Source: an uncultured Candidatus Binatia bacterium (lineage in GTDB: Bacteria; Desulfobacterota; Binatia; Bin18). Taken from it: DNA of 64,000 nucleotides. Of the stretch, positions 12,148 to 28,515 are shown in pieces; within the stretch, counting starts at the first letter, position 1; each line of letters opens with the position of its first letter. Where the stretch lies: contig OZ243961.1 of NCBI GenBank assembly GCA_965214605.1, positions 960,001 to 1,024,000 of the forward strand, read 5' to 3'. Under the pieces are notes generated by a model, which saw nothing but the letters and a program-made list of their open reading frames with translations, was not told the DNA's origin and did not search any database. Both the position numbers and the translations under genes were made by a program.

Positions 12148-13302
12148 TTAGGACAGTCCGTACACGCGGGCGACGTTGGCCCCCAAGAAATTGGTGCGGC
12201 TCTCCTCAGACATCGGAGCCACCAGTTCGGCCAAGGCTTTAATATAGTCACAGGTGTGATCATCATGTGGAAAGTCGCTGGCCCAGAAAAACTTCTCCGA
12301 GCCGATGTACTCCATCATATAGCGGACCGATTTTTCATCCGGATCGGCCGAAATCCAGCACTGGCGCTGGAAATAAAAGCTTGGCAGTTCTTTGAGCGGG
12401 ACACTCTTGCCCAGGGCGGTCTTATACGCGGCGTCCATCCGGTCGAGCAAATGGCCGATCCAGCTGGCCCCGGACTCAAGGACGACAATGTTAAGCCGAG
12501 GAAAGCGGTCAAACAGCCCGTACTGGAACAAACCTAAGAACGCCTGCTGAGGGCCCTGGGCACCCAGCAGATCGACCCACCATTCGCCCCATTTGTACAT
12601 CTCTCGGAAACGTTGATAGACCCGCCGGTTGGGTGGCTCGGCAACGGGATGAAGGCCGACCGGCACGCCCAAGTCTTGAGCGACTGCCCAAAACAGATCG
12701 TGATCAGGGTGAGCGTGGGCTTTATCGCTTATCGTGTACGGCGCCACAAAAGCGCCCTTGGCCCCGGCCTTGACGGCCCGCTCCAACTCCTGGGCTGCGG
12801 CCCGGCCATCGGGGAGCGTAATATGGGCGATCGGAATCAGGCGGCCGTCCGAGTCCGCACAAAAATCCACCACCCAGCGGTTGTAGGCCCGGCAATAGGC
12901 CAGGGCTAGCTCGGGATCGGTGATTTCGGTTTCCCACTCAAGCGAGAGCGTCGGGTAGATCAGGGCCTTCGCTAGATTTTCGCGGTTGAGCAACTCAAGC
13001 CGTTCTTGGGGCTTGTTGCCGCCAAACGGCACACTGTCAGCGTAGGGCGTGTGTTTGACCTGGTCGCGCTCCTGTGCGTCATGGCCCATGGAGCGCCCAC
13101 GGGCCAGAATTTCGGCGTCAAAGTAGCGCGACCGCTGGCCGTTCAGCTCCAGATGGTCGAGTCCATCCGGGCCGGGCCGAACCCGAATGGCGCGATCTAG
13201 GAACTGAGACTCAAGATAATTCTCCCACAGATCGGCCGGCTCGTTGATATGGCCGTCGGCATCAATAGCCCCGTCGTAGGGCAGAGACGAAGTACGAAAC
13301 AT
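12148..13302 (-). CDS. amidohydrolase-2 family metal-dependent hydrolase/decarboxylase
   Basis: IDADGH..EP, YNRW, LESGASW, WASDFPHDD. Confidence 0.9.
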   Translation of the reverse strand: MFRTSSLPYDGAIDADGHINEPADLWENYLESQFLDRAIRVRPGPDGLDHLELNGQRSRYFDAEILARGRSMGHDAQERDQVKHTPYADSVPFGGNKPQERLELLNRENLAKALIYPTLSLEWETEITDPELALAYCRAYNRWVVDFCADSDGRLIPIAHITLPDGRAAAQELERAVKAGAKGAFVAPYTISDKAHAHPDHDLFWAVAQDLGVPVGLHPVAEPPNRRVYQRFREMYKWGEWWVDLLGAQGPQQAFLGLFQYGLFDRFPRLNIVVLESGASWIGHLLDRMDAAYKTALGKSVPLKELPSFYFQRQCWISADPDEKSVRYMMEYIGSEKFFWASDFPHDDHTCDYIKALAELVAPMSEESRTNFLGANVARVYGLS

Positions 13303-13390
13303 GTCTGCACTCCTTAAGATTGGTGTCTGTCATTCTGGAGCGTTCATATTTTAAACGGTTAGAACGATCAAGTGAGGTTCAACGAAGCGC

Positions 13391-13404
13391 TCAAAGCGCT
13401 TTGA
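13391..13404. promoter_or_regulatory. perfect palindrome TCAAAGCGCTTTGA, candidate operator
   Basis: 14-bp dyad in a divergent intergenic region, ending 1 nt before a putative -35. Confidence 0.5.
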
Positions 13405-13405
13405 C

Positions 13406-13434
13406 TAGACACGTCTGATCAAGGGCCGTAGACT
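13406..13434 (+). promoter_or_regulatory. putative sigma70 promoter TAGACA-N17-TAGACT
   Basis: Near-consensus hexamers with 17-bp spacing, 44 nt upstream of GTG 13479. Confidence 0.5.
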
Positions 13435-13478
13435 ACGCCAGACAGCTGAGGCGACGACCGCGTCAGAGGGAGGCACAC

Positions 13479-14753
13479 GTGAAATTCGGGATTTTTTACG
13501 AACTGCAAACTCCAGAACCGTGGCGCGAAGGGGCGGAACAGCGGATATTCCGTGAAGCCCTTGAACAGGCCGAGGTGGCCGACCGGCTGGGGATCGAGTA
13601 TTTCTGGGAGGTCGAACATCACTTTCTTGAAGAATACTCGCACTCCAGTGCGCCTGAGGTCTTCCTGGCCGCGGTGAGCCAACGTACCAAGCGCATGCGT
13701 ATTGGTCACGGTATTGTTGCCCTGCTCCACGCCTATAATCCGCCCGCCCGGGTGGCCGAACGCATCGCCACGCTCGATTTGGTTAGCGACGGACGGCTGG
13801 AGTTCGGCACCGGGGAAACTAGCTCGGCCATGGAGTTGGACGGCTTCCATATTCCGCGGGCAGAAAAACGCGCCATGTGGGAAGAGTCGCTCGAAGCGAT
13901 TACCCGCATGTTTGTGGAGGTTCCGTTCGCCGGACATGTTGGCCAGTATCTGAACATGCCGGCCCGGAATGTCGTGCCCAAACCGGCTCAGAAACCCCAC
14001 CCGCCGCTGTGGGTGGCGTGTTCACGGCGCGACACTATCTTGACTGCGGCGCGTAAAGGCATCGGGGCCTTGACCTTTGCCTTTGTTAGCCCCCAAGAGG
14101 CGCAGCGGTGGGTCGATGATTATTATCGGACGCTGGCCGAGGAATGCGTTCCGGTCGGCTTCAGCGTGAACCCCCATATCGCCACTGTGGCCGGCTTTAT
14201 GTGTGACCGCAACGGCGACCGTGCCCGCCAAAAAGGCACGGAGGGCGCCCTGTTCTTCGCTTACTCGCTGGCCCATTACTACTATTTGAGCCACCACCAG
14301 CACCACCCCGGTCGGACAAATGTGTACGCGTTGTTTGAGAAAGAGAAACATCTGATGGGCCGAGCCCCTGAGTCGGTCGACCGAGCCGGCTTTACGCCGG
14401 GCAGCAATGTCGTTGATCCGGGAGGCTTGGCTAGTCTGACCGCAGCGATCGGCTCGCCCGATGAACTCCGCACAAAGCTGCGCACGTATGAAGCGGCTGG
14501 CGTTGATCAGATGATCCTGATCGCCCAGGCCGGGAAAAATCGTCACGAGGATATCTGTGAATCGCTAGAGCTGTTTGCCAAAGAAGTCATGCCTGAATTT
14601 GCCGACCGCGACGCCCAGCATCAGCAAGAAAAGGCGGCGCGTCTAGAGCCGATGATGGACCGTCTCACGCCCCTGTTGGCGACCAGGCTAGAGGAGGCGC
14701 GGACGCGGGCGACGAGTGTGAGCGAGACGGTATCGGCAAGCGGGATGCACTAA
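13479..14753 (+). CDS. LLM-class (luciferase-like) flavin-dependent oxidoreductase
   Basis: MKFGIFYE, WEVEHHF, PARVAERIATLD, PKPAQKPHPPLW. Confidence 0.92.
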   Translation: MKFGIFYELQTPEPWREGAEQRIFREALEQAEVADRLGIEYFWEVEHHFLEEYSHSSAPEVFLAAVSQRTKRMRIGHGIVALLHAYNPPARVAERIATLDLVSDGRLEFGTGETSSAMELDGFHIPRAEKRAMWEESLEAITRMFVEVPFAGHVGQYLNMPARNVVPKPAQKPHPPLWVACSRRDTILTAARKGIGALTFAFVSPQEAQRWVDDYYRTLAEECVPVGFSVNPHIATVAGFMCDRNGDRARQKGTEGALFFAYSLAHYYYLSHHQHHPGRTNVYALFEKEKHLMGRAPESVDRAGFTPGSNVVDPGGLASLTAAIGSPDELRTKLRTYEAAGVDQMILIAQAGKNRHEDICESLELFAKEVMPEFADRDAQHQQEKAARLEPMMDRLTPLLATRLEEARTRATSVSETVSASGMH

Positions 14754-14799
14754 GAGCCGCCGGCCATGCCAACCAGGAAGGGGGTCTCCGCTCATCGCT

Positions 14800-16695
14800 A
14801 TGCTTCTCTCTGGCATCTCGGTCCTGATCTTTATCGCCCTCCTGTGGTTCTTGGGCTGGTACGCCAAGCGCTGGGTTACGACCGACTCCGACTATCTGTT
14901 GGCCGGCCGCCAGGTGAGTATCATTCCCGGGGTGGCGGGCATCTGTGGGGTGGCCTTTGCCGGCAGTGTAACCAGCATCATTCCTGGTCTGACGATTCAG
15001 TACGGTTTTGTGGGCTGGATTTGGGGCGTCACCCTGCCAATGCTGATTGGCTACAGCTTATACGGGCTGTTGGCCAGCCCCTATATCCGCCGCAGCGGGG
15101 CCTATACCTTACCCGAGTGGCTGGAAGTCCGCTTTGACGCCCGCACCCGGCTGGCCGTCAGCATTGCCTCACTGATCGGCTTGACCGGGGTCGTGGCCAT
15201 GAACATTGTGGCTATGGCCCTCATTCTGGTCGGCTTTCTGGACGCCCCCCTGTGGCTGATGATCAGCCTGGTGTTGATCGGTCATTTGATCTTTATCATC
15301 TTAGGCGGTCTGTGGGCCTTAACGCTGACCGATGTGATCCAGGTATTACTGGGCTTTATCTTGGTTCCAGCGCTGGTCGGATATTGTGCCTGGACCTTTG
15401 GCGGCTGGAACAGCATTCAGACCACGTTTGTGACCGATACACCGCTGAGCCAGGGGATACACGGGGCATTTCCGGTGTTCCAGCTCAGCTATCCGAGCAT
15501 GCTGACGGTCTTTTTCGTCCTCGGCATGTTTATCCAGTGGGGCGGCAATTACTACTGGCTGCGGGCGGCTTCGGCCCGAACCGAAGCGGTGGCCTGTTAC
15601 CAATATCTGGTTGGCGGTGTCTTAGTGGCCGTGGTCGTGCACGCCGCCCTAGGCATCCTCGGTCTCTACGCCGGCAGTCTGTATCGTGAGGCATTCCTGG
15701 CCCAGGCGAATCCGATGAGCGCTTACGGCATGTTGCTCCGGGATTTTCCGCCCGGCGTGACCGTCGTGGGCCTGGTGACCGCCTTTGCTGCCACTATCTC
15801 GACGACCAGCAATGCCCACATGGGGATCACCGCGACGCTGGTGCGTGACATCTATCAGCGCTTCCTACGGCCCGAGGCGTCAATCGCTGACGTTTTGCGT
15901 ATGGGCCGTATCTTAACCGTATTGACCGGAGTGGCTATTTGGGCCCTCAGCTTTTATCCTGGCGGCCCGTACCTCCTCCTAGGAATCAGCTGCGCGTTGT
16001 TGGGACCGGCGGCTCTGATCTTCTTTTTTGGCCGGAGCTGGTCCGGCATGACTGCGGCCAGCGCATTTTGGACGGCTCTGCTGGGCATGATCAGCATGCT
16101 CGTCTACGAGGGTCTCCGCCTGCTCGGCCTCATCCCGTGGTCGGCACACACGGTGATTATCGGCACCGCGCTGATGCTGCCGCTCATCGTAGGCATTTCC
16201 CTCGCGCAACCTCAGACCGCGCAACGGTCCGCAGCGACCGGGTTGAACGATTCGCACCGGCGGATACTTGAGCTCTTGGGGCATGGCTACACCCAAATGG
16301 CCGAGATCAGCGACTTCTTGACCATGGACAGTAGCCGGGTCAATGACCTGGTCGAGGATCTGATGGCGCACGGACTGGTCCGACGTCGGGCGCTGCGAGG
16401 GCCGGATTTTTTTAGCCTGGACCTCACCCCTGAGGGGCGGCACGGGCCGGAGGCGGCCGACGAAGATCCGCTCGGGCTTGACGTCCTGGAACACACCCTG
16501 GGTCAGGCCAAAACGCTCTCCGAGCTAGGCCGAACGCTAGGCATCCGGGGCACAACCCTAGGGGCGGCCGTCAGTCGCTTAGAGCGACTCGGCTACGTAC
16601 AGACCCGTGGTATCTGGCAGCGACGGGTCTCCGCGTCCGACACGGGGAGGGCAGTATTGAGCACCTGCGGCCGCGGGCCGGCGGCCGCCGATTGA
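14800..16695 (+). CDS. sodium:solute symporter family transporter with two C-terminal winged-helix domains
   Basis: DYLLAGR, YTLPEWLEVRF, GGLWALTLTDVIQ, AATISTTS..ATLVRDIYQR (SSS motifs); C-terminal ~150 aa hydrophilic with two MarR-like wHTH repeats. Confidence 0.85.
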   Translation: MLLSGISVLIFIALLWFLGWYAKRWVTTDSDYLLAGRQVSIIPGVAGICGVAFAGSVTSIIPGLTIQYGFVGWIWGVTLPMLIGYSLYGLLASPYIRRSGAYTLPEWLEVRFDARTRLAVSIASLIGLTGVVAMNIVAMALILVGFLDAPLWLMISLVLIGHLIFIILGGLWALTLTDVIQVLLGFILVPALVGYCAWTFGGWNSIQTTFVTDTPLSQGIHGAFPVFQLSYPSMLTVFFVLGMFIQWGGNYYWLRAASARTEAVACYQYLVGGVLVAVVVHAALGILGLYAGSLYREAFLAQANPMSAYGMLLRDFPPGVTVVGLVTAFAATISTTSNAHMGITATLVRDIYQRFLRPEASIADVLRMGRILTVLTGVAIWALSFYPGGPYLLLGISCALLGPAALIFFFGRSWSGMTAASAFWTALLGMISMLVYEGLRLLGLIPWSAHTVIIGTALMLPLIVGISLAQPQTAQRSAATGLNDSHRRILELLGHGYTQMAEISDFLTMDSSRVNDLVEDLMAHGLVRRRALRGPDFFSLDLTPEGRHGPEAADEDPLGLDVLEHTLGQAKTLSELGRTLGIRGTTLGAAVSRLERLGYVQTRGIWQRRVSASDTGRAVLSTCGRGPAAAD

Positions 16696-16725: not shown

Positions 16726-17604
16726 ATGCAATACGGTTTACATCTCGCCAACGGCGTTTCCGTCACCGATCCAGCCGTCCTCAAAGATGTCTGTCAGTTG
16801 GCAGAAGAACTGGGGTATGAGTCGATCTTGATCGGAGACCATGTCTTGCCGCCACGCAAAATCAACTCCAAGTTTCCGCTGCCGGTCGAAGATCCCCAAA
16901 TCCACAGGTATCAGGACCAGCACTGGCCGGACTGCTTTGCCATGCTCGGCTTTATGGCTTCAATCACCTCCACCGTCCGGCTCGGGACCAGCGTCTTTAT
17001 CGTCCCCTATCGACATCCGGCGGTAACGGCAAAAATGGTCGCCACCCTCGATAAGCTCTCAAACGGACGCGTTATTGCCGGGATTGGTACCGGCTGGATC
17101 GAAGAGGAGTTCAATTTTTTGAACGTCCCGTTTGCCGAGCGGGGACGTATGACCGACGAATATATTGAGACCATGAAAGCCCTGTGGACAGACGCCCATC
17201 CGCGGATTGAGGGCAGGTTCGTCACCATTGACCGGGACGTCAACTTTGGCCCCTCCCCCGTTCATAAACCCCACCCGCCGATTTGGGTAGGCGGCAATAG
17301 CATGGCCGCCCTGCGGCGTGTCGTCCGCTGTGCCGATGGCTGGCAACCGGCCGGCCTGATGCCGGACGTTGTCGGCCAAAAACTCGACCAGCTACGGTCT
17401 TTGATGGCAGAAGCAGGTCGTGATTTTAGCCAACTCGAAATCACCTGCCTGGTCGGCACAGACGCAACCGAGGCCGTGGCCGATATCTTTGACACGCTGG
17501 GTACCGACGTCCTGTACGGTCTGGTTTCGGCAACCGATGAAGAAACCCCTCAGCTGTTTGCCGAAATCAAACGCTATGCAGAAACCATGTCACAACGGGG
17601 CTGA
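16726..17604 (+). CDS. LLM-class probable F420-dependent oxidoreductase (Rv2161c-like)
   Basis: GDHVLPP, LGTSVFIVPYRHP..AKMVATLD, GIGTGW, PPIWVGG. Confidence 0.88.
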   Translation: MQYGLHLANGVSVTDPAVLKDVCQLAEELGYESILIGDHVLPPRKINSKFPLPVEDPQIHRYQDQHWPDCFAMLGFMASITSTVRLGTSVFIVPYRHPAVTAKMVATLDKLSNGRVIAGIGTGWIEEEFNFLNVPFAERGRMTDEYIETMKALWTDAHPRIEGRFVTIDRDVNFGPSPVHKPHPPIWVGGNSMAALRRVVRCADGWQPAGLMPDVVGQKLDQLRSLMAEAGRDFSQLEITCLVGTDATEAVADIFDTLGTDVLYGLVSATDEETPQLFAEIKRYAETMSQRG

Positions 17605-19374: not shown

Positions 19375-19572
19375 GGCTGCCTCCGTGTCTTGTCAGCGTT
19401 TCATATGCAATAGAGAAGAACAGACCCTATTGTCAAGGAAAAGAACATCTCGGCCATGCAAGAAGCCCGCAGGCCGGACTCGGGGGCCGGCTTGGCTTTG
19501 TTGAGACCGGACCGCAGGATGTGCTATGGCAACGATCACATCAAGGGCCCACACACAGGAAAGGACACATCT

Positions 19573-20445
19573 ATGAGGTTTGGCATCCATTACTCGCTAG
19601 GCGTCGGTATGCGGCCAAACGCCGCCGATTATATCCGCATTGCCCAGAAGGCGGAAGCACTAGGCTATCACTCGGCCTGGCTTGGAGATCACATCGTTAT
19701 TCCGGAGAAAATCGAATCGGCCTACCCCTACACCCCGGACGGCTCGACTAGCTTTCCCCGTCGCTTGCCGTTTCCCGATCCGTTTGTGCTCTTAGCCGGC
19801 ATTGCCGCCAGCACCCGGACCATCCAGATCGGCACCAGCGTTATTGTCGTCCCCTACCGCAACCCGCTACACGTCGCCAAGGCTGTGGCTACCCTCGATA
19901 TGGTCGCCAACGGACGCTTTCAATTCGGCGTCGGAGTAGGCTGGCTGGCCGAAGAGTTTGCGGCCCTGGGGGAGCCGTTCTTCGATCGCGGCAGCCGGAC
20001 CCGCGAATATCTCGCGCTGATGAAAGCGGTCTGGAAAGACGGAGCAACGAGTTTCGAGGGCAAGTATTTCTCCTTTCCCGACCTGTACGCCCTACCGCTG
20101 CCCGTTCAAAAACCCCACCCGCCCATGATCTTTGGTGGTGAAAGCCTGCCAGCACTCAAGCGCGTGGCCGACCTTGGCGAGGGCTGGCAGCCCGGTCCAA
20201 TTCCGGTGGACATGCTACGAGAGCGGACCGACCGGCTCAAAGCCCTCATGGCCGAGCGCGGCAGAGATTTTTCTCAGCTCTCCTTCTCCATGCTGGGCGA
20301 CGGCCAAGACTTGAAGGATAATCCGGACAAGTTGGCCCGGCTGGAAGAGATCGGCGTGCAGGAAGTGGTCTTGTTTATGACCGATGCTGATACAGAGAAG
20401 ACGCTGACCAGGCTCGAAGACAACGCCCGAACCTTTCTAGCCTAG
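19573..20445 (+). CDS. LLM-class probable F420-dependent oxidoreductase (Rv2161c-like)
   Basis: GDHIVIPEKIESAYPY, GTSVIVVPYRNP, GVGVGWLAEEF. Confidence 0.9.
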   Translation: MRFGIHYSLGVGMRPNAADYIRIAQKAEALGYHSAWLGDHIVIPEKIESAYPYTPDGSTSFPRRLPFPDPFVLLAGIAASTRTIQIGTSVIVVPYRNPLHVAKAVATLDMVANGRFQFGVGVGWLAEEFAALGEPFFDRGSRTREYLALMKAVWKDGATSFEGKYFSFPDLYALPLPVQKPHPPMIFGGESLPALKRVADLGEGWQPGPIPVDMLRERTDRLKALMAERGRDFSQLSFSMLGDGQDLKDNPDKLARLEEIGVQEVVLFMTDADTEKTLTRLEDNARTFLA

Positions 20446-21700: not shown

Positions 21701-21822
21701 ACACGTCTCTCCTTATTGGACCTATCTTATCTGACTAACCGAGCAGATGCCAGTCATGCGGACCTTGACCGAATAAGTCAGAGACAGGCATATTGTCCGT
21801 GTTCTTCTACAGGAGGAGAGGC

Positions 21823-23013
21823 GTGTACCAAGATTATAAATTTATTGACAGCGATGCACACATCCTTGAACCGGCCGACCTGTTTGAGAAGTATCTTGAA
21901 GTCCCGTTTCGTGCCGAAATGCCACGGGCGTGGGTTGATTATCGGGGCGAACCGCTCGGCTTCGGCATTTCGGTGACCATCCCCGCGGCCCACAGTGACC
22001 ACGACTATGTTATGCCGTTCGGCCGAGACCCGATGCCCGACGGCGAGCCGACCCTGGGCGACGCGGGCACCCGTATTGCCATGCCCGAACACAATGATGC
22101 CTACGCCGGCTTTGCCCGCAAAGGCTTTCCACCCGACCTGTATAAGCTGGTCCTGGAGCGCACTGGCATCGACTATATGGTCGTCTATCCCACCGTCGGC
22201 CTGTACGTGACCGCGGTCCCCCGGCTCAAAGCGGAAACCGCCGCCGCCTATCGTCGGGCCTACAATAACTGGCTGCACGATTTTTGTACCGATGCCGGCG
22301 ACCGGGTCGTTGGTGCGGCATCTATTGATCTGCGCGATCCCGACGAAGCGATTCGAGAGGTTCGTCGGTGTGTCAAAGACTTCGGTTTCAAAGCGGTGCA
22401 CATCAATCCGACCCCGGTTGGCGAACACCGGATGTACGATGCCGTGTACGATCCGCTGTGGAGCACGCTGGAAGATCTTGACGTCCCGCTGGCCATCCAT
22501 GTCGGAGCGGGCAATGCGGCCGACGAGATGCTCTACTACTACCTGCCTCGCCTGCGCTCCATCCAGGGCACCATGGCCTTCACTATGGGCAATATGATTG
22601 CCAGTGCGGCGCTCATTATGGGCGGGGTGCTCGAACGCCATCCAAAACTGCGCGTGGTCCACCTGGAATCTGGGGCGGGCTGGGCGGCGTTTTGGATCGA
22701 CCGCATGGATGCTGGCGTCCAGGGCGGTTTCCGCGACCTTGAGAATCCGGGCCTCAAGCTGCACCCTATCGATTACTTCCAGCGCCAGTGCTACATCGCG
22801 GCCGATCAGGATGACCCCGGGATCAAACAGGTCATTGCGGTAATGGGCGATGACAACATTGTGACCGCAACCGACTTCGGCCATCCCGAAGGGCGAAAAT
22901 ATGCCGGTGCGGCCCAAGAGCTGCTCGGCCTGCCAGGTGTTTCCCCAGACAGTAAACGCAAGATTATGTGGGATAACGCTCTGCGGCTGTACCCACTCGG
23001 GACCACCGCTTAG
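21823..23013 (+). CDS. amidohydrolase-2 family protein
   Basis: IDSDAHILEP, YNNW, LESGAGW, ATDFGHPE; GTG start after AGGAGG. Confidence 0.9.
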   Translation: MYQDYKFIDSDAHILEPADLFEKYLEVPFRAEMPRAWVDYRGEPLGFGISVTIPAAHSDHDYVMPFGRDPMPDGEPTLGDAGTRIAMPEHNDAYAGFARKGFPPDLYKLVLERTGIDYMVVYPTVGLYVTAVPRLKAETAAAYRRAYNNWLHDFCTDAGDRVVGAASIDLRDPDEAIREVRRCVKDFGFKAVHINPTPVGEHRMYDAVYDPLWSTLEDLDVPLAIHVGAGNAADEMLYYYLPRLRSIQGTMAFTMGNMIASAALIMGGVLERHPKLRVVHLESGAGWAAFWIDRMDAGVQGGFRDLENPGLKLHPIDYFQRQCYIAADQDDPGIKQVIAVMGDDNIVTATDFGHPEGRKYAGAAQELLGLPGVSPDSKRKIMWDNALRLYPLGTTA

Positions 23014-27230: not shown

Positions 27231-28382
27231 TCATGATGCCGGTACGTCAAAGCAAAACAAGCTGACCGCGTTGTCATAGGTCAACTGCCGCCGCTCGTTG
27301 TCAGGCACCCCGACAAACATCGTGTCCAAAAACTCCATCGACTTGGGCCAGGTTGACTCTGAATGCGGAAAATCATTCCCCCACAGCATGTTGTCAAGAC
27401 CGATGCGGTGGCGGAGCTCAACGCCCACCTCGTCTTCCTGAAAGACGGCAAACATATTACGGAACCAGTAGTCGCTCGGCAGCAACCCCTCTTTGGACTT
27501 GTAGTTGGCGTAGACCGGCCGGTTGACAGAGGTAAAGTCCATCTGTTTCAGCCAGTGCGGCGCCCACGAAATCTCGTGCTCAACAGAGCCGATCTTAATC
27601 CGGGGGTAGCGCTCACACACCCCGGCAAAAATGATGTCGGTCAAGGCGTAGCGGACCCAGTAGTCTTGGGTCGGCCGGAGCCCGGCCGGGGTGAAGGTCG
27701 AAAAGCTAAACGAGATCTCACACCCCGGGACGTTGGCCCGCTGGGTGGCCAAGTGGAGGAGCAGCGGCATCTGGTACTCTTGGGCGGCCGCCCAGAGCGG
27801 CTCATACATCAGGTCTCGATACGGCCGGCCCGGCAGCGGCGTCACGGGGACAAAGGCCCCGGCCAGTCCTAGCTTGGCACACCGTTCGAGTTCGACACCG
27901 GCCGCCTGGGGATCATCGACATTGATCATCCCGATGCCCCGCAGCCGCTGGGGATTGGCCCGACAGAACTCGGCAATCCAGCTGTTGTAAGCGGAACAAA
28001 TCCCGGACAGCAGCTCGCTGTCTTCCAGATGATACCAAAACAAGCCCTGACTCGGCTGCACCACCGCCCCCCAAATCCCATCCAGCTCAAGCTCGGCCAG
28101 CATGGCTTCGGGCTGATAGGCGCCTTCTCTGACGTCTTCCCAAATGCTGACAAAATCCAGGCCCCTGGCGTCTTCAAACCGCCGTCCGGCCTGGGTGACA
28201 GCTCCGAGCGTGGCGACCTGCACATCGCCGAGGAACCACGCATCGGCCTCTTTGCCCTCCTGGGTTGTATACCGTTTGATGAGCGGCGCTCGGCCGAGCA
28301 GCTTGGAGGGCATGCGCTGGGTATACAGATCCGGCGGTTCAACAATATGCGAATCACTCGAAATAACGGGGCAGCGTGTCAT
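27231..28382 (-). CDS. amidohydrolase-2 family protein
   Basis: ISSDSHIVEPP, YNSW, WGNDFPHSESTWP; GAGGAGG RBS. Confidence 0.9.
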   Translation of the reverse strand: MTRCPVISSDSHIVEPPDLYTQRMPSKLLGRAPLIKRYTTQEGKEADAWFLGDVQVATLGAVTQAGRRFEDARGLDFVSIWEDVREGAYQPEAMLAELELDGIWGAVVQPSQGLFWYHLEDSELLSGICSAYNSWIAEFCRANPQRLRGIGMINVDDPQAAGVELERCAKLGLAGAFVPVTPLPGRPYRDLMYEPLWAAAQEYQMPLLLHLATQRANVPGCEISFSFSTFTPAGLRPTQDYWVRYALTDIIFAGVCERYPRIKIGSVEHEISWAPHWLKQMDFTSVNRPVYANYKSKEGLLPSDYWFRNMFAVFQEDEVGVELRHRIGLDNMLWGNDFPHSESTWPKSMEFLDTMFVGVPDNERRQLTYDNAVSLFCFDVPAS

Positions 28383-28515
28383 GTGTCCCTCCTCAGTCTG
28401 GAATTGCCCATACCATGCCCCTGACTGCAACACAAGAACAGGCTGGCCTCGCTTGCATTTCCGCCTGTTTTGGGACACATGAAGAGACGCCCACGCGTCG
28501 CACAGGGAGGCTCAC

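Follow-up and report, generated by a model that had tools for sequence, protein, structure and literature searches.

The well-studied bacterial transporters that double as sensors either need a kinase, as CbrA and CrbS do, or work with a separate membrane regulator, as in the LysP-CadC pair. A flux sensor could hardly be simpler than a whole symporter that is connected to a winged-helix module without any intermediate. In CbrA and CrbS, according to the accessible parts of the reports, a transporter of the sodium:solute symporter (SSS)/SLC5 family is joined to a cytoplasmic signalling module in one polypeptide (PMC7096432, PMC5715377, PMC13022988, PMC7918813), and the fusions discussed in the accessible part of the 2021 SSS review are kinase fusions only (PMC7918813). 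In this contribution, we describe a gene of an uncultured Candidatus Binatia bacterium (assembly GCA_965214605.1) whose product is an SSS symporter that continues into two winged-helix units, referred to below as wH1 and wH2. The gene occupies positions 14800..16695 on the plus strand of the stretch that was analysed, a 64,000-nt piece of contig OZ243961.1 (positions 960,001 to 1,024,000), which we call the window. A preliminary description of the gene, made from the nucleotide sequence, stated that no characterized SSS transporter is known to be fused directly to DNA-binding domains, and our search agrees with it: no description of an SSS protein fused or joined to winged-helix or other DNA-binding domains was found in print, subscription journals being outside the search.

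A 2023 census of transmembrane transcription regulators contains 273 membrane proteins with the MarR_2 domain, and in the accessible part of its supplements SSF appears as a domain once only, in a LysR-SSF protein (PMC10269533). This protein, given there with HTH_1, LysR_substrate and SSF domains, 634 aa and 6 predicted transmembrane (TM) helices, would represent a different way to join an SSS transporter and a DNA-binding domain (PMC10269533). As judged from sequence comparisons, the symporter with its tandem winged-helix module constitutes a conserved, undescribed, cross-domain subfamily. The new finding is that the module is also encoded by a gene of its own, with a product of about 160 aa, and that this gene is linked to symporter genes that have no tail.

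Domain organization and predicted structure of the fused protein

The gene starts with an ATG and runs as a single open reading frame (ORF) of 631 codons plus stop. Its product consists of a symporter core (residues 1-470; 14800..16209), a short linker of about 12 residues between TM13 and wH1 (residues 471-483; 16210..16248), an acidic winged helix wH1 (residues 484-548; 16249..16443), an inter-domain linker (residues 549-556; 16444..16467) and a basic MarR-like winged helix wH2 (residues 557-622; 16468..16665), all on the plus strand. The limits of the two winged helices follow from predicted secondary structure, conservation and net charge (for wH2 also from its superposition on structure 5h3r), and those of the inter-domain linker from the family alignment, in which it has 14 aligned residues vs about 25 in most relatives. 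The linker that follows TM13 is variable in both length and sequence in the family tail alignment and is modelled with low confidence (block 471-480 has a pLDDT of 61 in the whole-protein model).

A Pfam scan assigns the protein to the SSS family (TC 2.A.21) by a match to SSF (PF00474) at residues 32-429 (E 9.8e-20, 71.2 bits vs a cutoff of 22.8), and MarR_2 (PF12802) is matched by two stretches of the whole protein, the best being 481-531. When the tail is scanned alone, MarR_2 is found with an E of 1.7e-13 and 50.9 bits vs a cutoff of 27, again in two stretches. Around residues 481-531 wH1 is matched by TrmB and HTH_24 as well as by MarR_2, and by FeoC weakly (PF09012, E 0.072), while the wH2 region around 568-604 is matched by HTH_27 (568-604) and Fe_dep_repress. 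No STAC, PAS, HisKA or HATPase domain was found in the protein by the Pfam scan at E <= 1, only SSF and families of the winged helix-turn-helix (wHTH) type. Since the core scores 95.4 bits with the NCBIfam sss superfamily model, under its cutoff of 184, and its similarity to PutP and PanF is distant (PutP E 1e-10, far under the cutoff), it appears to represent a divergent SSS subfamily. The window genome has a single copy of the fused gene, the GC content is even over the junction of core and tail, and the homologues among the database matches listed are named only 'sodium:solute symporter' or 'hypothetical'.

A Kyte-Doolittle scan reveals 13 hydrophobic peaks between residues 8 and 469, and with the N-terminus placed outside, the loops contain 16 Lys and Arg residues inside vs 2 outside; the N-terminus is thus predicted to be outside, and the C-terminus with the tail in the cytoplasm. 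This is the PutP-type topology, which has 13 TM helices, the N-terminus outside and the C-terminus inside. When AlphaFold2 was run on family alignments, the whole protein was modelled with a pLDDT of 89.0 and a pTM of 0.88, and a Foldseek comparison of the core model with solved structures returned SGLT2, SiaT (5nva, TMt 0.78), CHT1, NIS, SMCT1 and vSGLT, which, together with hydropathy and the Lys/Arg distribution, is consistent with a LeuT-type fold of 13 TM helices. The vSGLT sequence is also found in a core profile search (E 4e-24). The family-invariant residues A330, S334 and T335 are in the segment that HMMER aligns with AALAAAIVSS of vSGLT, the register being off by one residue. We take S364 and S365 of vSGLT to be the Na2-site hydroxyl pair in the TM8-equivalent helix of the SSS family.

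The tail alone was modelled with a pLDDT of 88.4 and a pTM of 0.79 as two helix-helix-helix-wing units. In the models, wH1 consists of three helices and a two-stranded wing, and wH2 has the same elements and one short C-terminal helix in addition. Each unit superposes on MarR, SlyA, PcaV, HlyU and NolR, i.e., on regulators of the MarR and ArsR/SmtB families, with an rmsd of 1.4-2.1 over about 70 residues. The match of wH2 to the Escherichia coli MarR-DNA complex 5h3r has a VIA-align Z of 12.2 (rmsd 2.1, 71 residues), and about 50 further MarR, PadR and ArsR regulators are matched at Z 10-12; with the MarR_2 score, this places the tail among the MarR-type wHTH domains. The N- and C-terminal dimerization helices of MarR are found in neither unit of the models, so the tail does not have what a MarR homodimer is built with. 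None of the solved tandem winged helices compared fits the two-unit arrangement (SelB WH2-4, ScpB and AlkX/YcaQ give an rmsd of 8-16). A search of the PDB with the tail profile returned marginal MarR matches only (best E 8e-5), with CheF-C, SNF8 and AcrIIA7 as weak ones (E > 0.009), and in the ESM Atlas only generic wHTH clusters were found, the best (0.93) being clusters of wHTH proteins associated with PRTase, with nothing beyond what Pfam gives.

These results bear out much of the preliminary description, in which the SSS domain was said to continue in frame into two repeats that both follow the MarR-like pattern. Both repeats quoted there lie in the single ORF, at coordinates that were correct within a few bases, Pfam finds SSF and two wHTH matches, and both Pfam and the predicted fold make the units MarR/ArsR-type. 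The modelling of the tail, which had been proposed as a check, yielded two confident winged helices.

Conservation of the fusion

Among the matches listed, 106 of 120 homologues cover at least 95% of the query and are 631-749 aa long. A scan of relatives with one genome per GTDB species gave 170 relatives, from which 79 loci were kept, and in every locus with a full-length gene (73/73, in named genomes from Binatia, Bacillota and Spirochaetota) the tail is present. A search for the same order of domains in other genomes, another of the checks proposed earlier, thus shows the architecture to be conserved across phyla. The family falls into three groups: a Binatia clade that includes the window (63-87% identity), a second Binatia paralogue (55-58%) and a clade from Bacillota, Spirochaetota and Halanaerobiaceae (34-38%), to which cultured Virgibacillus, Brevibacillus, Mesobacillus, Sporosarcina, Bhargavaea and others belong, among them Virgibacillus litoralis, Brevibacillus panacihumi and Mesobacillus maritimus with loci L048, L052 and L078. 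The distribution of the family is patchy and its prevalence low: a sample of 401 genomes from the Bacillota-type phylum contained 9 with the module, and a sample of 201 from the window's own phylum contained 2, one of them being the window genome.

Six tail residues, D505, L521, R529, G534, G604 and R608, are invariant in the tail alignment, and E502 (97%), W606 (93%) and G616 are nearly so. In comparison with the closest relative, L002, core and tail have dN/dS values of 0.09 and 0.31, respectively, at an unsaturated dS of 0.41-0.53 (comparisons with more distant relatives are saturated), which indicates that the tail is under purifying selection, though its constraint is weaker than that of the core. 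The fusion of a symporter gene with a regulator gene could in principle be an artefact, produced by an assembly chimera or a lost stop codon, and unfused arrangements do exist in other lineages; otherwise no support for such an origin was found. It is refuted by the continuous frame seen in the 106 of 120 homologues listed and in the 73 loci, which come from three phyla and include complete chromosomes and cultured strains, and the selection on the tail also speaks against it, so we regard an artefact as practically excluded.

Tail-like positions of SSS proteins may also be taken by other domains. The proteins P0115, P0116 and P0119 (Methanolobus and relatives, 628-655 aa) belong to a different SSS subfamily and carry another soluble C-terminal domain of about 170 aa, in which no winged helix is seen by eye. 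The C-terminal additions to SSS cores may therefore be more varied than the described kinase fusions.

The tandem module as a separate gene

A profile built from 74 tails was searched against 1.84 billion representative proteins and gave 207 matches at E <= 1e-3, of which 112 have E <= 1e-10. The matches include fused proteins and fragments, and by our own count, about 40 of the best 150 of these 207 matches are free-standing proteins of roughly 145-190 aa that comprise the whole module. Most of the 35 free-standing sequences inspected start with a Met and have no hydrophobic segment. One of them is, by its NCBI name, a Bathyarchaeota protein, and several are named 'SSS family solute:Na+ symporter' by JGI.

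In all four contexts examined, the gene of the free-standing module shares a gene string or operon with an SSF gene, the two genes overlap in three of the four, and both gene orders are seen. In L099 the module gene lies upstream of, and overlaps, a 480-aa tail-less SSF gene; in L098 it is first in the string and a 519-aa SSF gene is one gene away. In L102 and L103, which come from a metagenome scan with the free-standing protein P0165 (2 loci), it overlaps the 3' end of the SSF gene, which in L103 is cut by the contig end. A Cyclase gene, as in the fused Bacillota loci, is carried by L098 and by L102, which also has FAA-hydrolase and metallo-beta-lactamase (MBL) genes; L103 is without it and has a cupin gene. 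A scan of metagenome contigs with another single protein, P0148, gave no relative.

A quick FastTree tree of the cores was built with 46 rows, which comprised the window protein, sequences from 35 of the 73 fused loci, 2 cores without a tail, three proteins about 500 aa long and 5 SSS proteins from outside the family. In it the fused cores form a clade (support 100) whose sister group (support 99) is made up of the two tail-less cores that go with free modules, apart from the other SSS proteins, a placement that has to be considered provisional because the branches are long. The three proteins of about 500 aa, which end where the tail would start, nest within the fused clade. The occurrence of fused and split forms in both gene orders is classic evidence that the parts work together. 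Since free module genes share operons with tail-less symporter genes, overlapping them in either order, the module and this symporter subfamily appear to be an old functional pair, and we consider it very probable that the module is functionally coupled to the symporter. The tandem winged-helix module would then be the obligate cytoplasmic partner of the subfamily, fused to it here and encoded by a separate, overlapping gene in some Bacillota and archaeal-type contigs.

The module is also found in other company. In protein P0251 (342 aa), a PAS domain precedes the tandem module (profile positions 22-170, E 2.8e-7), which looks like the sensor-output layout of a soluble protein.

The existence of free-standing homologues, and the poor conservation and low model confidence of the linker, would also be expected if the tail were the precursor of a soluble regulator, i.e., if it were cut off or made from an internal start and acted as a free transcription factor. 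This is very improbable, however, as the tail does not begin with a conserved Met or start-like residue (Leu occupies position 482 in 69% of the sequences), the first conserved Met, at position 500, is inside helix 2, and no protease gene was seen among the recurrent neighbours.

Asymmetry of the winged helices and the proposed mechanism

The two winged helices differ in charge. The net charge of wH1 is negative in 60 of 74 fused and in 25 of 31 free proteins, with a mean of about -2.9, and that of wH2 is positive in 65 of 74 and 23 of 31, respectively. When the two units of each protein are compared, the charge of wH2 is the more positive one in 69 of the 74 fused proteins and in 26 of the 31 free ones. 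The charge asymmetry is thus a property of the module itself. Helix 2 of wH1 holds E502 and D505, and the wing of wH1 is without basic residues. In wH2, R593 is basic in 96% of the sequences, position 596 in 68% and R617 in 77%, and these positions are accompanied by the invariant Arg608 and by W606. It was proposed in the preliminary description that the two units form an intramolecular pseudo-dimer. A symmetric MarR-like pseudo-dimer on a palindrome is unlikely, because the units are not equivalent and the MarR dimerization helices are missing. A division of labour would fit better, in which wH1, being close to the membrane, would do the coupling and wH2 would bind nucleic acid.

Contact between the tail and the core was assessed by folding the core (residues 1-470) and the tail as separate chains in 3 runs with 3 controls. 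The median docking score is 0.60 (runs 0.59, 0.60 and 0.77) vs 0.00 for the best of the 3 controls, at least 67% of contacts agree between the runs, and the pLDDT of the partner is at least 74. In calibration, 116 of 157 solved complexes passed, as did 2 of 215 mismatched pairs, and passes with a score of 0.60 or lower comprise only 18 of the 157 solved complexes and both of the passing mismatches; these counts hold only roughly here, custom alignments having been used. As a contact was likely beforehand with a tether of about 12 residues, the models lend only modest, weak support to a tail that docks on the core.

We favour, with a probability of roughly 40%, the possibility that the protein is a membrane-tethered, transport-coupled one-component regulator with wH1 on the core and wH2 on DNA. 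The 13-TM core would import a catabolic substrate, perhaps an aromatic or heterocyclic acid, as suggested by the Cyclase, FAH, cupin, BKACE and HpaB genes among the neighbours. The acidic wH1 (E502, D505, R529), next to the membrane, would sit on the cytoplasmic face of the core and read its conformational state, and the basic wH2 (R593, W606, R608, R617) would serve as the output and bind nucleic acid, most probably the promoter DNA of the operon that contains the symporter gene. The protein would be a transceptor without a kinase. Its layout is that of a membrane one-component regulator, with a TM region and a cytoplasmic domain of a DNA-binding type in one chain. An output role of the tail is also favoured by the persistence of the charge asymmetry in fused and free proteins, by the PAS and tandem-wHTH layout of P0251 and by the lack of any other recognizable regulator within about 14 kb of the window gene.

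A number of observations weigh against this mechanism. DNA binding by the tail is a prediction for all members of the family. Besides being acidic, wH1 has two nearly invariant acidic residues in its helix-turn-helix, and the wing position that we take to correspond to the minor-groove arginine of MarR is occupied in wH1 by Asp or Gly (GPDFF or GxGFY). No more than one of the units thus seems suited to binding DNA, and either a single half-site or dimerization of the symporter would be needed. The linker after TM13 is very short, and the DNA would have to come close to the membrane surface. No direct or inverted repeats of 10 nt or longer were found in the window at 13290-13490 and 14740-14810 or upstream of the gene in L002. 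The invariant residues of the tail are unchanged across clades whose neighbouring genes are completely different, which fits a conserved protein contact better than varied operators, and gene overlap, which occurs where module and symporter are unfused, is seen more typically between genes of subunits than with regulators. Finally, a gene for a dedicated regulator is no more than five genes away in 25 of the 31 loci from Bacillota, Spirochaetes and Halanaerobia. It is of the TrmB family in 12 loci, a sigma-54 activator in 6 and MalT/LuxR in 7, and in 5 of these last 7 it overlaps with the symporter gene by the ORF calls. The statement of the preliminary description that no other regulator is nearby holds for the window, where no regulator family was matched by Pfam among the 31 ORFs between 871 and 31271 (about 14 kb around the gene), and fails for these non-Binatia loci.

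Much of this would be accounted for if the tail were an allosteric regulatory domain that does not bind DNA and gates or tunes transport from the cytoplasmic face, either through feedback inhibition by a cytoplasmic metabolite bound between the units or through autoinhibition, as modelled by FeoC and by the C-terminal regulatory domains of other secondary transporters. The acidic wH1 with its invariant acidic residues, the short linker, the adjoining regulators of the non-Binatia loci and the identical invariant residues in clades with unrelated neighbours all point this way, and so does the overlap of the unfused module gene with the symporter gene, as for subunits made in a fixed ratio. The weakly supported docking, the high pTM of the whole-protein model and the weak FeoC match on wH1 can be added to them. 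On the other hand, the MarR_2 match is above the Pfam cutoff and this family is overwhelmingly DNA-binding, wH2 retains conserved basic residues in helix 3 and the wing, and the relative with a PAS domain is laid out like a regulator. A regulatory domain of this DNA-free kind is doubtful when taken by itself and is nearly as likely as the membrane-tethered regulator.

That regulator genes adjoin the symporter gene in 25 of the 31 loci outside Binatia may also mean that the tail is a docking platform. Depending on transport activity, it would bind or let go of a transcription factor encoded separately (TrmB-family, sigma-54 activator or MalT-like), much as in the MalK-MalT and PtsG-Mlc systems. 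By the ORF calls, the overlap between the MalT/LuxR gene and the end of the symporter gene is 4 nt long in L056, L058, L064 and L065 and 85 nt long in L050, and in the Halanaerobia loci L059 and L063 the two genes are 37-46 nt apart. However, these would-be partners belong to three unrelated families while the tail is conserved, and no recurrent regulator neighbour is found in the window or in the other Binatia loci, and we consider a docking platform to be rather unlikely.

The transport-coupled regulator, which we prefer, may be stated in a stronger form, namely that the whole symporter is itself a transcription factor, its conformational cycle being read by wH1 and passed to a promoter-binding wH2 at the membrane. 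Together with an ancient pairing of the two parts, which are fused in Binatia, Bacillota and Spirochaetota and are two overlapping genes in other Bacillota and in Bathyarchaeota-type contigs, this is put forward somewhat more tentatively. If it is true, the flux of the substrate would set the expression of the operon, and neither a kinase nor a second messenger nor a separate regulator would be involved. Should the tail bind DNA, the family would be a new class of transmembrane regulators and a compact biosensor design. If it does not, this would be a FeoC-like case, in which a MarR-type fold has turned into a regulatory subunit of a transporter, and a warning against annotation of such domains as transcription factors. 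The family is tractable, since it has cultured hosts (Virgibacillus, Brevibacillus, Mesobacillus, Sporosarcina and Bhargavaea), natural split versions and a soluble module of about 160 aa.

Gene neighborhood and promoter-like sites

The symporter gene is preceded, at a distance of 46 nt, by a gene of a luciferase-like monooxygenase (LLM; 13479..14753, plus strand), with which it probably forms one operon, and is followed after 30 nt by another LLM gene (16726..17604, plus strand), which is in the same position in the close relatives L002, L003 and L045 (81-93% identity). The LLM/symporter/LLM string diverges from a gene assigned by Pfam to Amidohydro_2 (12148..13302, minus strand), homologues of which (55-87% identity) accompany the symporter gene in the majority of the loci that make up the closer Binatia clade. 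The flanking LLM and amidohydrolase genes had been proposed as the regulated targets, and they are indeed there, but as neighbours they are common only to the close Binatia relatives, which weakens the proposal. Within 17 kb, the window has three Amidohydro_2 paralogues (12148-13302, 21793-23010 and 27234-28478) and three LLM paralogues (13479-14753, 16726-17604 and 19456-20445); genes of a family III CoA-transferase, a cupin and GST complete this dense catabolic neighbourhood.

Elsewhere the neighbours are different. The Bacillota-type fused loci have Cyclase in 23 of 31 and also BKACE, FAA hydrolase, MBL and thiolase, and next to the Binatia paralogue there are HpaB, a MetE-like gene, an aminotransferase and a dienelactone hydrolase. 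Clusters 8, 15, 22, 32, 35, 41, 46 and 47 of recurrent neighbours of the Binatia paralogue have no Pfam match even at E 0.1. Cluster 8 (e.g., L022:4418-4915, plus strand) is a 166-aa ORF with about four hydrophobic segments, which in 16 loci immediately precedes the fused symporter gene in the same orientation; it looks like a small membrane protein rather than a regulator and may be a small membrane subunit. In L100 (G248:C47:1-12000), two fused symporter paralogues of 634 aa each flank Cyclase and SDR genes, and adjacent genes encode a glycyl-radical enzyme with its activase as well as a sigma-54 activator, an arrangement suggestive of an island for anaerobic catabolism.

A promoter-like site (TAGACA, a 17-nt spacer and TAGACT; 13406..13434, plus strand) is located upstream of the LLM/symporter/LLM string, and its -10 hexamer is inside a 12-nt block (13425-13436) that is identical in L003. 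Two such sites were found vs 1.4 expected, which is not above chance, so that conservation is the argument for the site. The alignment of the intergenic regions of the window and L003 contains two identical blocks, GTTCATATTTTAAAC (13342-13356) and GCCGTAGACTAC (13425-13436). Both were considered as evidence of an operator and set aside, since they overlap promoter-like hexamers and are read as promoter elements. The 15-nt AT-rich GTTCATATTTTAAAC, in DNA of 60% GC, precedes the divergent Amidohydro_2 gene and probably represents the -10 region of the minus-strand promoter of that gene. An 11-nt palindrome is present upstream of the gene in L003 only. From the Binatia paralogue 11 upstream regions were extracted, and the 9 that were aligned (2 were left out as artefacts of overlapping ORF calls) have a block CAC.GCGTA in common.

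Comparison with known systems

FeoC, a small winged-helix partner of FeoB to which it is tied both genetically and physically, was first taken for a regulator, and we know of no demonstration of its binding to DNA. The FeoB-FeoC pair resembles the system described here in that a winged-helix protein is tied to a transporter. It differs in that FeoC is a single wHTH domain that serves a G-protein-coupled iron transporter, and in sequence it is related to wH1 of the window protein by nothing stronger than the Pfam match described above. Each unit of the tail is like the regulators of the MarR and ArsR/SmtB families in its MarR_2 match and in its superposition on MarR, SlyA, PcaV, HlyU and NolR. 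Unlike them, the tail has no dimerization helices and combines in one chain two non-equivalent units, one of which is acidic.

The activity of a transporter is relayed to transcription by direct contact at the membrane in the MalK-MalT and PtsG-Mlc systems, and the MalT-like gene that overlaps the end of the symporter gene in Spirochaete loci recalls this arrangement. The partners in those systems are, however, separate and unrelated proteins, without a wHTH domain fused to the transporter. ToxR, TcpP, CadC and the multi-TM BcrR share with the window protein the combination of membrane spans and a cytoplasmic domain of a DNA-binding type in one chain. In these regulators the domain is N-terminal, of the OmpR, XRE or AraC type, and is combined with a sensor of 1-4 TM helices, whereas the window protein contains a complete 13-TM transporter and its DNA binding is predicted.

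Among the closest described systems, CbrA and CrbS are similar to the window protein in that, in the accessible parts of the reports on them, transport and a signalling module share one chain. The window protein has neither the STAC nor the PAS, HisKA and HATPase domains, and its core is related to the PutP-like cores only distantly. The output of the window protein would be direct, through its wHTH domains, with no phosphorelay and no response regulator.

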